From positions 25,480 to 89,479 of the IMG/VR virus record IMGVR_UViG_3300027631_002331: 64,000 nt of DNA, one strand, 5' to 3'. The DNA is from a virus. Numbering within the stretch: the stretch's first letter is position 1; every line of letters starts with the position of its first letter. The translations under genes were made by a program, and so were the position numbers. This document shows positions 20,565 to 25,468 of this stretch, in pieces. The notes under the pieces are model-generated. The model searched no databases. It was not told the DNA's origin and worked only from the letters and a program-made list of their open reading frames with translations.

Positions 20565-20592
20565 TGAGTATGTATAATCGTAAAAATAAAAA

Positions 20593-21213
20593 ATGAATTT
20601 ACAAAAAACATTGAAGTTATTTTTATTTAGTTTTATTATTGGGTTTTCGTCTTGTACTAAAGCTCAATTACAAGAACCTAACTTAAGACAACAAGTTAAA
20701 GTTAATACTCCTATATTTTCTGTAATTTATTCTGAAACAAAAGAACAACCCCTAAAACTCGTTTACAGGTCTTCAAATAGACCTAAAAATGTAGATAGGG
20801 GTTCAATGAACTTTTATACAGAATCTAAATACCATACTTCGGATAACAGAGATTATTATAGAAATGTATGGGATAAAGGTCATCTAGCTCCTGCTGCTAC
20901 ATTTTCTGATAGTAGAGAAAACTTAAAACAAACATTTTCATATCTTAACTGTGCCTTACAAAACCAATACCTAAATAGAGGTGCTTGGAGAATATTAGAG
21001 GAGCAAGAAAGAAAATGGGATGATCAAGAAGAACTAATAATCACAATTGAAATAAAATTCTCAGATTCAATTCTACCTACAGGGGCTACACTACCTAGTA
21101 GGTTTATTAAATGTATTGAATTTACAAAAAGTAATGTTAAACGCTGCTTTTCCTTTCCAAATAAAAAACCAACAATGGGTTGGGAGGAATATGAAGTAAA
21201 ACATTTACGTTAA
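20593..21213 (+). CDS. Secreted/lipoprotein DNA/RNA non-specific endonuclease (NucA/EndA family)
   Basis: Signal peptide with lipobox-like FSSC; WDKGHLAPA active site, TFSYLNCALQ, LNRGAWRILE. Confidence 0.88.
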   Translation: MNLQKTLKLFLFSFIIGFSSCTKAQLQEPNLRQQVKVNTPIFSVIYSETKEQPLKLVYRSSNRPKNVDRGSMNFYTESKYHTSDNRDYYRNVWDKGHLAPAATFSDSRENLKQTFSYLNCALQNQYLNRGAWRILEEQERKWDDQEELIITIEIKFSDSILPTGATLPSRFIKCIEFTKSNVKRCFSFPNKKPTMGWEEYEVKHLR

Positions 21214-21252
21214 AGGTTATGTATTGTTTAATTTAAACTCAAAAAAACGAAA

Positions 21253-23730
21253 ATGAAAAAACTCGTTACAACGTTGCTGTTAGTATTCCTAACAGTAGGA
21301 GCTTACGCTCAAGAATCATCCACTGATTCTAAAACCATCTTAGATGTAAATTTAGAAGAGGTAGTAATTACTTCACGTGTTATTGATGTCGCTAGAGAAA
21401 GAGAGACACCAATTGCCGTAAGTACAATCTCAGCACAAGAGGTGTTGTTGAAAGTAGGAAATCAGGAATTTCCAGAAATCATGAACAAGACACCAGGGGT
21501 GTATGCTACTAAACAAGGAGGGGGATATGGTGATAGTCGTATTTCTTTAAGAGGTTTTAATCAGCGTAATACTTCTTTTCTTATCAATGGTCAACCCGTT
21601 AATGATATGGAAAACGGTTGGGTGTATTGGTCGAATTGGCAAGGATTATCAGATGTAACATCTAATATCCAAATCCAACGTGGTCTAGGTGCCACTTCTT
21701 TAGCAGTACCATCCGTAGGAGGTACTGTTTCTATTTTCACTAAAAGTGCTGAAAAAGCTCAAGGTGGATCTTTAACTCAGATGTTGGGTAATGATGGTTA
21801 TACCAAAACTACTGCAGTATATAATACTGGGGTAAATGATAAAGGTTGGTCATCATCTTTTTTATTAACTAAATGGTCTGGAGATGGATACATTTATAAT
21901 ACATCAGGAGCAGGATGGACTTATTTCGCAGCCGTAGGATATACACCAGAAGGTTCAGCTCATAGCTTGAACCTTTCTTTTTTAGGTGCTGGACAATGGC
22001 ATCACCAAAGAGATGTTTGGGTATCTATTAGAGATTATCAAAACTTCGGAGATGAAGGTATTGATAGACGTTGGAATACCAACGGTGGTACTTTAAATGG
22101 TGAAGAGTATAACTTACGTAGAAACTTCTACAATAAACCTCTTGCTACTATAAACTGGGATTGGGATATTTCAGATAATGTACAGTTAAACACATCTGTA
22201 TACGGTTCAGCTGGTAGAGGTGGAGGAACAGGTCCTCGTGGTAGAAACTATTATGAAGGATCTATTGATATGTTACCTTTTCGTAAGGATTTAACTGAAC
22301 ACTACTTAGAAAATGGTAAAGGAACTCGAGATGCTAATGGCTTTATTAACTATGACGCAGTAGTAGCTCATAACTCCCAATATGAGGTAGGATCTCACAA
22401 TGATAAAGATTATGCTCGTAACGTATTAGTACGTAGAGCTTCTATGAATTCCCATAACTGGGTTGGAGCTATTTCTAAGCTTAACATCCAGAAAGATAAA
22501 ATGAGATACTCTTTAGGAGTTGATTTACGTAACTATACTGGTTATCACTATAGAACAATGAATGATTTATTAGGTCTTCAAGGGTATGCTTCTACAGGTA
22601 ATCAAAATCTAGGTACTCAAATTTATGGTGCGAGTGATTTAGTATCAGCTAACCCATTTAGAAGTACTAATATTGGAGATAATGAAGCAAAAATTGCTTA
22701 TTACAATATTGGATTTGTAAAGTGGGCAGGTGTTAATGGTTTAGTAGAATATGCTGGTGATAAGATTACCGCAGTACTACAAGCCGGAGCATCTAACCAA
22801 CAATTCCAAAGAGAAGATAGATTTGCAAACGTAAATAATCCTATTTCAGATAAAGCTAACTTAGGTGGTGGGTATCTAAAAGGAGGTATTAACTATAACT
22901 TTACTAAAAAATCTAACATATTTGTAAATGCTGGTTATATTGATAGACAGCCTTTATTTGATGCCGTATTTCCTAACTTTGGAAATGATATCAACCCAGA
23001 CCTACAAAACGAACGTATCGAATCATTTGAGATTGGATATGGTTATATAGGTAAGAAATTAAAGTTAAATGTTAATGCATATAATACTAATTGGGGTAAT
23101 AGATTTGTTTCTCGTAGTTTATCTAATCAACAAGGAGTTGATGGGTTTGCTCAATTTAGAAATATTGATGTAACTCATAAAGGTATTGAAGCTGAAGCAA
23201 CATATAGAATGGGTTCAACTAAACTAAGAGGTATGTTATCTATTGGTGATTGGACTTACACTAAAGACTTCGAAGCAGAGCTATTTGACGAAAACCAACA
23301 ATCAATTGGTACTGGTAAACTTTATACTAAAGGTGCTAAGGTTGGAGATGCCGCTCAAATTACTGCTTTTATAGGTGTTGATCAAAGATTAGGTGATAAA
23401 TTAAAAGTAGATCTAGATTATAGATTTGTAGATGGTCTATACGCTGATTATAGTATTACAGATTCAGCATTTACTAACCCAGATAATGAAGGAGCATTAA
23501 AATTACCTTCTTATGGTATTGTAGATTTAGGAGCTACATTTTATGCAGCTAATGGTTGGTCATTGAGAGCAAACATTAATAACTTATTAGATACCACTTA
23601 CATTGCAGAGTCTAATAGTAATATTCATGCAACTGCTGGTTCCACTACCTGGAATGGAATTGATACAAGAAATAGTGTATGGTTCGGATTTGGACGTACA
23701 TGGAATGTTTCGCTTAAATATAAATTTTAA
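21253..23730 (+). CDS. TonB-dependent outer membrane receptor
   Basis: Signal peptide; TonB box LEEVVIT; plug ISLRGF...LINGQP...IQIQRG...GGTVSIFTK; barrel; NNLLD and terminal YKF. Confidence 0.93.
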   Translation: MKKLVTTLLLVFLTVGAYAQESSTDSKTILDVNLEEVVITSRVIDVARERETPIAVSTISAQEVLLKVGNQEFPEIMNKTPGVYATKQGGGYGDSRISLRGFNQRNTSFLINGQPVNDMENGWVYWSNWQGLSDVTSNIQIQRGLGATSLAVPSVGGTVSIFTKSAEKAQGGSLTQMLGNDGYTKTTAVYNTGVNDKGWSSSFLLTKWSGDGYIYNTSGAGWTYFAAVGYTPEGSAHSLNLSFLGAGQWHHQRDVWVSIRDYQNFGDEGIDRRWNTNGGTLNGEEYNLRRNFYNKPLATINWDWDISDNVQLNTSVYGSAGRGGGTGPRGRNYYEGSIDMLPFRKDLTEHYLENGKGTRDANGFINYDAVVAHNSQYEVGSHNDKDYARNVLVRRASMNSHNWVGAISKLNIQKDKMRYSLGVDLRNYTGYHYRTMNDLLGLQGYASTGNQNLGTQIYGASDLVSANPFRSTNIGDNEAKIAYYNIGFVKWAGVNGLVEYAGDKITAVLQAGASNQQFQREDRFANVNNPISDKANLGGGYLKGGINYNFTKKSNIFVNAGYIDRQPLFDAVFPNFGNDINPDLQNERIESFEIGYGYIGKKLKLNVNAYNTNWGNRFVSRSLSNQQGVDGFAQFRNIDVTHKGIEAEATYRMGSTKLRGMLSIGDWTYTKDFEAELFDENQQSIGTGKLYTKGAKVGDAAQITAFIGVDQRLGDKLKVDLDYRFVDGLYADYSITDSAFTNPDNEGALKLPSYGIVDLGATFYAANGWSLRANINNLLDTTYIAESNSNIHATAGSTTWNGIDTRNSVWFGFGRTWNVSLKYKF

Positions 23731-23734
23731 TAAT

Positions 23735-24684: not shown

Positions 24685-24911
24685 TGAAAGAAGAAACTAA
24701 AGAATTACTTTACAAAGTATTTGTAATTTACATCGGTACAGCGTCCTTAATGGTAGGTCCATTTTTTGTAAACTTTTTATTAGGTAAAGTACTATCAGTA
24801 ATAGGATTAGCATTATTAACAGTACAAACACAAAAAACAAAATCATATAACCTATCTTTACTTAATGTAGTAGGTATATGTGGTTACTTATATAGCATCT
24901 TTACTCAATGA
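24684..24911 (+). CDS. Small 3-TM membrane protein
   Basis: 75 aa with three hydrophobic segments; translationally coupled (TAATG) to S1/P1. Confidence 0.7.
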   Translation: MKEETKELLYKVFVIYIGTASLMVGPFFVNFLLGKVLSVIGLALLTVQTQKTKSYNLSLLNVVGICGYLYSIFTQ

Positions 24912-25441
24912 GCAAGTTAGTTAACTTATTTGGAGGTCCTGGAATTGGAAAAAGTGGGATTGCTGCTGGTATAACTTATAAACTTAAGAAAAACCATATT
25001 AGTTGTAATAATCCATATGAATTCCCTAAAACTATAGCTTGGGATAATAATCTTCCTGCAATCAAAGATCAATTATATATTTTTGCTAATCAACATAGGG
25101 GAATAGCACAAGCATATGGTAAAGTAGATTATATTATAATTGATTCACCAATTTTATTCTCTACAATTTACCACACATACTATACTAATGGATACCCAGC
25201 TGAATATTATAGACAGCCCTTCCATGATTTAGTAGTCGATCTACATAATCAGTATGATAGTATAAACATATTGTTAGATAGAGGAGAAACAATACATAGT
25301 GAGGATGAAAGATTCCAAGATTTAGAAGAATCAATAGCAATAGATAAACTATGTAAAACGGTTTTAGATAAACATAATATACCATACCACACAATAAAGG
25401 TAGGTAAAAATACTGTTAAAAAAATAATGAAACTACTATAA
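24908..25441 (+). CDS. P-loop NTPase, NadR/nucleoside-kinase-like (AAA_28)
   Basis: NLFGGPGIGKS Walker A, YEFPK, IIIDSPIL, R.QDLEES. Confidence 0.72.
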   Translation: MSKLVNLFGGPGIGKSGIAAGITYKLKKNHISCNNPYEFPKTIAWDNNLPAIKDQLYIFANQHRGIAQAYGKVDYIIIDSPILFSTIYHTYYTNGYPAEYYRQPFHDLVVDLHNQYDSINILLDRGETIHSEDERFQDLEESIAIDKLCKTVLDKHNIPYHTIKVGKNTVKKIMKLL

Positions 25442-25443
25442 AG

Positions 25444-25468
25444 AAAGAGCGCAATAGCGCTCTTTTTT
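25444..25468 (+). terminator. Intrinsic terminator
   Basis: AAAGAGCGC-AATA-GCGCTCTTT then TTT. Confidence 0.88.

Follow-up and report, generated by a model that had tools for sequence, protein, structure and literature searches.

Candidate envelope module for nucleic-acid salvage in an uncultured marine phage of Flavobacteria-like bacteria

Why would a phage carry the gene for a complete outer-membrane importer between the genes for two nucleases with export leaders, directly behind its ribonucleotide reductase genes? The question is raised by a stretch of 64,000 nucleotides (the window), which comprises bases 25480-89479 of the 89,479-bp IMG/VR record IMGVR_UViG_3300027631_002331 (CheckV completeness 55%) and comes from an uncultured marine phage of Flavobacteria-like bacteria. 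Six open reading frames (ORFs), correctly placed by a preliminary description of this DNA, follow nrdBA directly: a NucA-like endonuclease, a TonB-dependent receptor (TBDR), a 44-residue peptide (p44), an S1/P1 nuclease, a 75-residue protein (p75) and an AAA_28 kinase. That description read the set as a pipeline for scavenging extracellular nucleic acid. From comparative genomics alone, we interpret the cassette, with moderate confidence, as a putative phage-encoded envelope module that salvages nucleic-acid breakdown products. The gene set and the export leaders of the earlier proposal stand; a single operon, a PnuC/SemiSWEET-type transporter role for p75, a surface position of NucA, a defined substrate of the kinase and the full set as a conserved unit are not supported.

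The record is a genuine phage, and the cassette is part of its genome. Genes for the large terminase (1.9e-50), portal (2.8e-61), major head protein (1.3e-68) and a head-tail adaptor lie upstream on the same strand; the window also encodes a DnaB-like helicase, a UvsX-like recombinase, a family-B polymerase and a chaperonin, and 104 of the 109 called ORFs are on one strand. Base composition is even across the window. Moreover, the independent contig L002 repeats the order helicase, nrdBA, NucA, TBDR, S1/P1, p75, kinase and envelope genes at 90-99% protein identity, and parts of the gene order recur on several further contigs. The preliminary description had itself raised the possibility that misassembly or contamination had attached host DNA to a phage contig. 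Two observations lend this some colour: the TBDR is ~70% identical to chromosomal genes, and a nominally cellular contig, L106 (NZGF01000066, binned in a Crocinitomicaceae metagenome-assembled genome), carries a TBDR identical to that of the IMG/VR viral locus L034, so binning errors do occur. L106 itself probably derives from a phage and was placed in a bacterial bin. Against contamination stand the hallmark genes on the same strand of the same contig, the even composition and the shared order on L002 and other contigs. In addition, at least half of the stretch's sampled words are present in 15 DNA runs (20 matching rows, 16 studies), where the organism labels given read marine or seawater metagenome except for one marine sediment, and relatives of the kinase and of p75 are absent from all 80 cellular TBDR loci. 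We therefore reject this explanation as extremely improbable.

The TBDR is, to judge by its sequence, a copy of a core outer-membrane importer of the host. It is 69-74% identical to its chromosomal orthologs, which constitute a core chromosomal TBDR of marine Flavobacteriales. The protein is complete, comprising a leader, a TonB-box-like LEEVVITS, a plug (PF07715, 49 bits, 1e-12), a 22-strand-type barrel (PF00593, 64.6 bits, 2e-17) and a C-terminal Phe (...KYKF), with both Pfam matches above their cut-offs. The TonB-box-like motif, L-x-E-V-V-V, is kept in most viral copies, as it is in cells. An N-terminal extension present in 50 of 80 viral copies is missing from the window copy, which is also without the N-terminal CarboxypepD_reg domain seen in the Polaribacter ortholog. 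The preliminary description had raised the prospect of a siderophore or B12 receptor. None of the curated siderophore, haem or B12 NCBIfam models reached its cut-off on the TBDR; the best was TIGR01786 with 85.7 bits against a cut-off of 323.75, and TIGR01783 and TIGR01779 scored 63.4 against 223.5 and 50.8 against 599.7, respectively.

Relatives of the TBDR occur on 459 of 460 candidate IMG/VR stretches (the best 80 are 63-94% identical) and in >594 stretches of cellular genomes (the best are 60-74% identical). True chromosomes are among the latter, including a 2.6-Mb Polaribacter chromosome and a 549-kb contig of strain MS024-3C. Using FastTree, we built an unrooted tree of 158 TBDRs. Viral and cellular sequences interleave in this tree, with 14 label changes of which at least 11 are forced by well-supported branches. 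Thus, the gene has moved repeatedly between phages and hosts. The clade of the window (seven viral rows, support 100) is sister to two Ca. Arcticimaribacter rows (support 96); as the tree is unrooted, we claim no direction of transfer between these two.

The Ca. Arcticimaribacter locus (L097, WTJN01000153) is a cellular counterpart of the phage cassette. Behind its TBDR, which is 72% identical to that of the window, come genes for an S1/P1 nuclease (3.7e-65) and, on the other strand, a CNT nucleoside transporter (2.9e-66), then for a LOG-family enzyme and for a NucA lipoprotein (1.3e-23); ordinary cellular genes (DUF1501, DUF1800) resume beyond. This cluster provides independent support for a nucleic-acid role. 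Among cellular S1/P1 copies, that of this cluster also comes closest to the phage enzyme, at 51% identity versus 42-44% for others, or 48% versus 36-45% when compared over 33 loci. S1/P1 is present in 124 of the 201 genomes of that family. The usual neighbours of the cellular TBDR are pgi upstream (46 cellular loci gave 119 scanned neighbour proteins, of which 19 were PGI), a gene for a small 8xMP membrane protein or RecJ downstream, and RsmI-like genes. Two other neighbours were considered and judged too weak to count: GDPD (4 of the 119 proteins, two genes away and on the other strand, in Schleiferiaceae/Cryomorphaceae) and three matches to Exo_endo_phos_3, which appear to be the Robiginitalea loci described below.

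Both nucleases score above the cut-offs of their family models, and the family assignments made earlier all held in Pfam (Endonuclease_NS, TonB plug and barrel, S1-P1_nuclease and AAA_28). The NucA-like protein matches PF01223 with 70.4 bits (cut-off 23, E 2.3e-19). It aligns with EndoG and the Serratia nuclease around the catalytic His, with an Asn matched to that of EndoG and its DKGH to the DRGH of EndoG. Its lipoprotein-type leader, with Cys21, and its DKGH are present in the sequence as had been described, and most phage homologs retain the lipobox Cys. An acidic run after this Cys is a criterion for surface exposure; by eye, no such run directly follows it in NucA. The S1/P1 nuclease matches PF02265 with 204.3 bits (cut-off 29.5, E 3.8e-60), and its residues 19-258 align, from Trp19, to residues 1-242 of the mature chain of 8qjl (E 1.6e-29). 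The conserved motifs are WG..GH, W.D, WHY.N, HL.GD.HQP.H and LH..WD, which include what we take, from the P1 nuclease literature, to be the zinc-binding residues. In every copy listed, a hydrophobic leader ends just before the Trp of WGK(T/V)GH. These features identify S1/P1, at the level of sequence, as an exported zinc nuclease. The preliminary description had allowed for cytoplasmic nucleases; the conserved leaders, which were read from the sequences, predict export of both. Among cultured-phage records, the sole DNA similarity was a 208-nt stretch of NucA shared with Flavobacterium phage immuto, the best TBDR match was 33% identical and came from human-faecal contigs, and S1/P1 had no match.

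We evaluated co-occurrence on the 80 best distinct contigs, basing downstream counts on the 55 that extend at least 3 kb beyond the TBDR and the count for NucA on 71. The kinase lies within 6 kb downstream of the TBDR on 34 of the 55 contigs, p75 on 18, S1/P1 on 17 and p44 on 3, and NucA lies within 1.5 kb upstream on 7 of the 71. NucA, TBDR, S1/P1 and kinase are found together on 4 of the 80 (L002, L006, L007 and L059), as well as on L083, found in the S1/P1 search, and in the window. The widespread core is the TBDR with the kinase, and the full set is confined to a small clade. The expectation that the genes co-occur in related phages was borne out, but the complete architecture is not supported as the conserved unit. 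Other neighbours of the phage TBDR were a clamp-loader-like AAA gene (20 loci), a GMP-reductase/IMPDH-like gene (15 loci, always directly upstream), GroES (14, directly upstream, e.g. L070:3245-3544), thioredoxin (13), nrdA (12 in the neighbour scan; 10 of the 80 distinct contigs), a small phosphoribosyltransferase (6) and GTP cyclohydrolase I (5). Comparison between phage lineages indicates strong purifying selection on each of the cassette genes, with omega values of 0.004-0.17 as compared with 0.04-0.09 for nrdB. Specifically, omega was 0.07-0.17 for NucA, about 0.09-0.10 for the TBDR, 0.12-0.17 for S1/P1 and 0.01-0.16 for p75.

The chaperonin of the window is of GroEL type (61985-63595; PF00118, 2.4e-58). 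It and the GroES of sister phages could relate to the folding of phage-made proteins.

The kinase matches PF13521 with 47.9 bits (cut-off 27, E 2.2e-12). It is highly conserved, with homologs 61-94% identical, and is a member of an AAA_28 family widespread in viruses (TM 0.85). In a Foldseek search, the top match was NadR (8x7f, E 1.3e-5, TM 0.65), with similar scores for thymidylate (TMP) kinase 4s35 and deoxyadenosine kinase 2jat; the sequence profile of the kinase had no match among PDB sequences. The designation of a NadR-like P-loop kinase was therefore accurate as to family and fold, but a nucleoside kinase is not separable by fold from a nucleoside monophosphate (NMP) kinase. The kinase query had no match in four candidate host genomes, and the Thymidylate_kin model had none anywhere in the record. 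The only match to the dNK model in the record is a different ORF outside the window (G000:C1:8071-8598, 175 aa, E 8e-4, below cut-off), a second small P-loop ORF that matches at the dNK P-loop.

p75 had been described as a three-helix membrane protein and put forward for comparison with PnuC and SemiSWEET. An AlphaFold2 model does predict three helices, with a mean pLDDT of 91.6, but a transporter of either type is not supported. Neither p44 nor p75 matched a Pfam family; PF04973 (PnuC), MtN3_slv and PQ-loop had no match at E<=1 in 54 members of the p75 family, and PF04973 had none in the 89-kb record. Foldseek against the PDB returned nothing for p75 at E<=0.001, and SemiSWEETs appeared only at E 3-8 with a TM of about 0.55. 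A wide VIA-align comparison yielded generic helical bundles (best Z 9.2), with cystinosin at Z 7.2. A link to the CBU_0592 membrane family of NCBIfam (6 of 54 members, best E 0.0078, below cut-off) was not used. The p75 family comprises 137 clusters, nearly all of 50-120 aa, and the three best Atlas clusters are 86-100% viral. The residues G18, Q48, N56 and N61 are near-invariant. The basic N-termini and a QTQKTK loop suggest an N-in topology, so the conserved polar loop is probably cytoplasmic. Predicting a complex of the kinase and p75 gave no answer (score 0.00, mark 0.32) and was used neither way. Among relatives of p75, we found no related loci for P0133, and the two small-phage loci of P0131, which are without the kinase, were uninformative. 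P0154, a 235-aa relative, has an N-terminal domain of ~160 aa that by eye resembles dihydrofolate reductase, and P0127 and P0215 bear other N-terminal extensions. These extensions suggest that the p75 domain can anchor cytoplasmic enzymes to the membrane. Relatives of p44 were detected by tblastn in 8 of 90 fetched loci, and p44 has a weak match to phrog_9048 (E 0.0034).

The genes of the cassette are closely packed (Table 1). Gaps of 39, 33 and 3 nt separate NucA from the TBDR, the TBDR from p44 and p44 from S1/P1, respectively, and S1/P1 overlaps p75 by 1 nt and p75 the kinase by 4 nt. The preliminary description framed the cassette with one promoter and one terminator. The promoter-like TATGTATAAT is present at 20569, is absent from the sigma-70-like sites scored and carries no statistical weight. 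Sigma-70-like sites are not commoner in the region than in shuffles (21 versus 27.0 +/- 4.0). Bacteroidota promoters follow another consensus. Terminator-like sites are enriched in the region (6 versus 2.1 +/- 1.6). The closing hairpin with its T-run is real, as had been described, but an equally strong hairpin directly after the TBDR had been missed. A single operon is thus not supported, and the hairpins suggest that there may be two transcription units, NucA-TBDR and p44-S1/P1-p75-kinase. The window also encodes a small ORF resembling a phosphoribosyltransferase (PRTase), of the same Pfam family as the PRTase found beside TBDRs in sister phages; it is a possible salvage partner.

Table 1. 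Features of the cassette and its surroundings (window coordinates). The nrdB and nrdA genes were named from their translations; on related contigs, their homologs are found upstream of the TBDR.
Feature	Position	Strand	Description
nrdB + nrdA (ribonucleotide reductase)	17867..20564	+	nrdB 17867-18847; nrdA ends at 20564; immediately upstream of the cassette
NucA-like endonuclease	20593..21213	+	206 aa; PF01223
TBDR	21253..23730	+	825 aa; PF07715 + PF00593
Terminator-like G+C-rich hairpin + T-run	23735..23754	+	Directly 3' of the TBDR stop codon
p44 ORF	23764..23898	+	44 aa; one C-terminal hydrophobic segment
S1/P1 nuclease	23902..24684	+	260 aa; PF02265
p75	24684..24911	+	75 aa; predicted three-helix membrane protein
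AAA_28 kinase	24908..25441	+	177 aa; PF13521
Palindromic hairpin + T-run, terminator-like	25444..25465	.	Closes the cassette
Small PRTase-like ORF	54646..55032	+	PF00156, 26.6 bits summed, just above cut-off (G000:C1:80167-80361)

Contigs from RNA libraries of three studies cover NucA/TBDR and S1/P1/p75 at >=99% identity. Two of these, at 21163-21696 and 21184-21375, span the end of NucA and the start of the TBDR; others cover parts of the TBDR, and one at 24446-24731 bridges S1/P1 and p75. As these are assembled contigs and carry-over of DNA is possible, they provide a weak hint of transcription; the runs were kept as contigs, so depth cannot rank the genes and uncovered parts carry no meaning. 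In the marine metatranscriptome run X18, very deep contigs lie over nrdB/nrdA (window 17868-20202), with a summed word depth of 14,000-53,000, where contig depth does not equal expression. Most contigs from that run are 90-95% or 95-99% alike and hence stem mainly from relatives, which suggests that the sample held an active bloom of a related phage.

Directly downstream of the cassette, window 25569-28055 (continuing to 31011) contains a run of exported or lipoprotein-like ORFs. One encodes a 157-aa protein with weak YajG-like matches (PF03923, E 0.0044; PRK11627, E 3.8e-6); a second product, of 545 aa, weakly matches cohesin, and a third, of 125 aa, has a lipobox. Four other phage loci (L012, L022, L032 and L077) carry this block in inverted orientation shortly before the TBDR.

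How might such a module work? During infection, the phage would make its own copy of a core host TBDR together with two exported nucleases. Lipid-anchored NucA would cut DNA or RNA to short pieces, and the TBDR, energised by the TonB of the host, would carry small fragments or nucleotides across the outer membrane. In the periplasm, Sec-exported S1/P1 would trim the fragments to mononucleotides. Host enzymes and inner-membrane carriers would then bring nucleosides or bases into the cell, where the phage kinase, the small phosphoribosyltransferase and ribonucleotide reductase would feed dNTP synthesis. In this scheme, the substrate of the TBDR, the site of each nuclease, the substrate of the kinase and any role of p75 or p44 are what we infer. 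There is a working precedent for such a scheme in Bacteroides, where loci for DNA utilisation resembling polysaccharide utilisation loci (PULs) combine signal peptidase II-type (SPII) nucleases, a TonB-dependent transporter (TBDT) and a signal peptidase I-type (SPI) nuclease (10.1101/2025.03.18.642099).

Several observations weigh against this interpretation. Most phage TBDRs have no nuclease nearby (S1/P1 in 17 of 55, NucA in 7 of 71), so the function of the TBDR cannot depend on them. Most cellular orthologs likewise lack one: within 8 kb, S1/P1 and NucA each occur at 2 of 80 loci. Among 33 cellular S1/P1 loci (flanks of 1.5 kb), this TBDR is adjacent in only one, that of Ca. Arcticimaribacter, and the arrangement is thus rare in cells. 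The strong terminator-like hairpin parts NucA and the TBDR from the downstream genes, and no PDB structure matches the TBDR by sequence. In NucA, a Lys replaces the Arg of DRGH; DKGH is found in all nine phage copies listed and DRGH in two cellular ones. For p75, no transporter family gave a match. Kinases of this family occur commonly in many kinds of phage, and nucleoside and NMP kinases cannot be told apart by the fold. A 5'-nucleotidase, CNT and PnuC were not found in the 89-kb record (55% of the genome), so the inner-membrane step rests entirely on the host. Finally, DNA is a poor sole source of carbon, nitrogen or phosphorus for Bacteroides thetaiotaomicron according to the preprint on its DNA-utilisation locus (10.1101/2025.03.18.642099), and the physiological gain from such loci is therefore not self-evident.

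Some of these same facts favour the main rival, in which the TBDR keeps a core host importer running for a substrate unrelated to nucleic acids, such as a metal, cofactor or nutrient (e.g. for ribonucleotide reductase), with the nucleases and kinase merely nearby. This would account for the many phage TBDRs without nucleases, for cellular orthologs that usually sit beside pgi with no nuclease, for a kinase family widespread in phages that lack a TBDR, and for a hairpin that makes NucA-TBDR a possible separate unit. Source annotations name relatives as iron or cobalamin receptors, albeit as generic labels, and phage TBDRs have been read before as general uptake auxiliary metabolic genes (PMC9723777; 10.64898/2026.05.02.722434). 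Yet the curated iron, haem and B12 models all fall far short of their cut-offs, and the TBDR lies persistently within nucleotide-metabolism modules. Its adjacency to S1/P1 occurs both in phages and in Ca. Arcticimaribacter, matching the phylogeny, and exported nucleases are ill-suited to serve as cytoplasmic enzymes of nucleotide metabolism. On balance, we find an unrelated substrate doubtful, although it deserves serious consideration.

Two further explanations dispense with uptake of nucleic acid. Periplasmic nucleases could destroy the DNA of a superinfecting competitor while a variant TBDR alters or dilutes a phage receptor. Predicted export of both nucleases would suit this role, TBDRs are common phage receptors (10.64898/2026.05.02.722434), and the interleaving of viral and cellular TBDRs (at least 11 label changes) implies that phage copies track host alleles, as expected of a receptor under conflict. 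Against exclusion, purifying selection acts on the TonB box, the plug and the entire barrel, as it would on a working transporter, and the existing receptors of the host would presumably persist in the outer membrane during one infection. Exclusion also leaves unexplained the linkage to the kinase and p75, the nucleotide-metabolism setting and the cellular cluster with a nucleoside transporter; we consider it unlikely. Alternatively, the nucleases may act after lysis, when the burst sets them free to digest viscous host DNA that would trap virions, with the TBDR as unrelated cargo. Secreted DNases encoded by streptococcal prophages are known to aid spread, and both enzymes here are predicted to be exported and non-specific. 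Nevertheless, the lipid anchor of NucA argues against a freely released enzyme, and neither the TBDR-S1/P1 adjacency, the cellular cluster nor the tight packing of S1/P1, p75 and kinase finds an explanation. This last alternative appears to us very unlikely.

Returning to salvage of nucleic-acid breakdown products, we tentatively propose a broader form of this reading. A large, globally distributed group of marine Flavobacteriales phages may give infected cells an energised outer-membrane route by which dissolved DNA and RNA, some of it from previously lysed neighbours, would supply material for the genomes of progeny phages. The core pgi-linked TBDR of pelagic Flavobacteriales may itself be an importer of oligonucleotides or nucleotides, repeatedly exchanged between phage and host. 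Dissolved DNA and RNA constitute major marine reservoirs of organic phosphorus and nitrogen, and matter derived from blooms is turned over predominantly by Flavobacteriia. If the proposal is true, infection would drive re-uptake of nucleic acid in addition to its release by lysis and would short-circuit the viral shunt. A core, highly conserved TBDR of marine Bacteroidota would also gain a first function, and DNA-utilisation loci would be extended from gut bacteria to marine viruses.

The closest characterised system is ddbABCDEF of B. thetaiotaomicron, which, as the preprint describes it, encodes SPII nucleases, a TBDT with a DUF5689 partner and an SPI nuclease (10.1101/2025.03.18.642099). 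The locus is required for depletion of exogenous DNA (Sharan et al., 10.1101/2025.03.18.642099) and is related to a TBDT pair of natural transformation in Riemerella anatipestifer (10.1101/2025.03.18.642099). The phage cassette appears to share its logic, pairing a predicted SPII lipoprotein nuclease with a predicted SPI periplasmic nuclease. Unlike ddb, it adds a kinase and a small membrane protein, and it is borne by a virus; the preprint makes no mention of phage or virus (10.1101/2025.03.18.642099). The transporters differ as well. As a DdbC-like comparator we used a Robiginitalea TBDR (L131:12740-15472), so called from its DUF5689 neighbour. Identity to the phage TBDR is 24% over 243 aa (E 4e-7) for this protein, as against 69% over 811 aa for the pgi-linked TBDR in that genome. 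The two types lie ~2.3 kb apart there, and the DUF5689 gene is ~5 kb downstream of the pgi-linked TBDR. DUF5689 (PF18942) had no match in the 89-kb record (55% complete) and none among the cassette ORFs. With DUF5689 absent and a TBDR of another family, the cassette is not a member of the ddb type. In Robiginitalea aestuariiviva (L131:11595-16851), a lipoprotein-like ORF, a 910-aa TBDR and the DUF5689 protein lie 1-5 kb past the pgi-linked TBDR; the first is, by eye, of the Endonuclease/Exonuclease/Phosphatase family, and the three appear to resemble a ddbBCD-like set. In Polaribacter, a DUF5689 gene lies ~270 kb from the TBDR ortholog.

The Ca. Arcticimaribacter cluster shares more with the phage: the same TBDR lineage (72%), S1/P1 directly after it and a NucA-type lipoprotein nearby. 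It differs in being cellular, in having CNT and LOG where the phage has p75 and the AAA_28 kinase, and in a NucA with DRGH rather than DKGH. As in PnuC/NadR pairs, the gene for a small membrane protein overlaps that for an AAA_28 kinase, and the kinase has NadR as its best structural match; p75, however, has three helices only and no match to PF04973, and the kinase fold fits TMP and deoxynucleoside kinases equally. Similarly, the SusC/SusD PULs of Bacteroidota comprise a TonB-dependent importer and a hydrolase at the surface or in the periplasm. The SusD family was absent from the nine Pfam-scanned ORFs, and SusC/RagA from the NCBIfam matches.

TBDRs have been reported from large phages. Those of Mar_Mega_1 and LR745206 were read as SusC-type importers of carbohydrate (Michniewski et al. 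2021, PMC9723777), and those of phages of ammonia-oxidising bacteria as serving iron or haem uptake (10.64898/2026.05.02.722434). Like the TBDR of the window, these are complete and phage-encoded and were read as nutrient-uptake auxiliary genes; those of LR745206 and LR75650x differ from it, with 24-31% identity over 21-34% of its length. The passages of these accounts that deal with TBDRs describe no nuclease-TBDR-kinase cassette (supplementary tables lay outside their coverage), and a search of the literature, outside which lay subscription journals and supplementary tables, found no published phage cassette of this kind. What is new here is the combination in a phage; cellular DNA-utilisation loci and phage TBDR auxiliary genes have each been described already.

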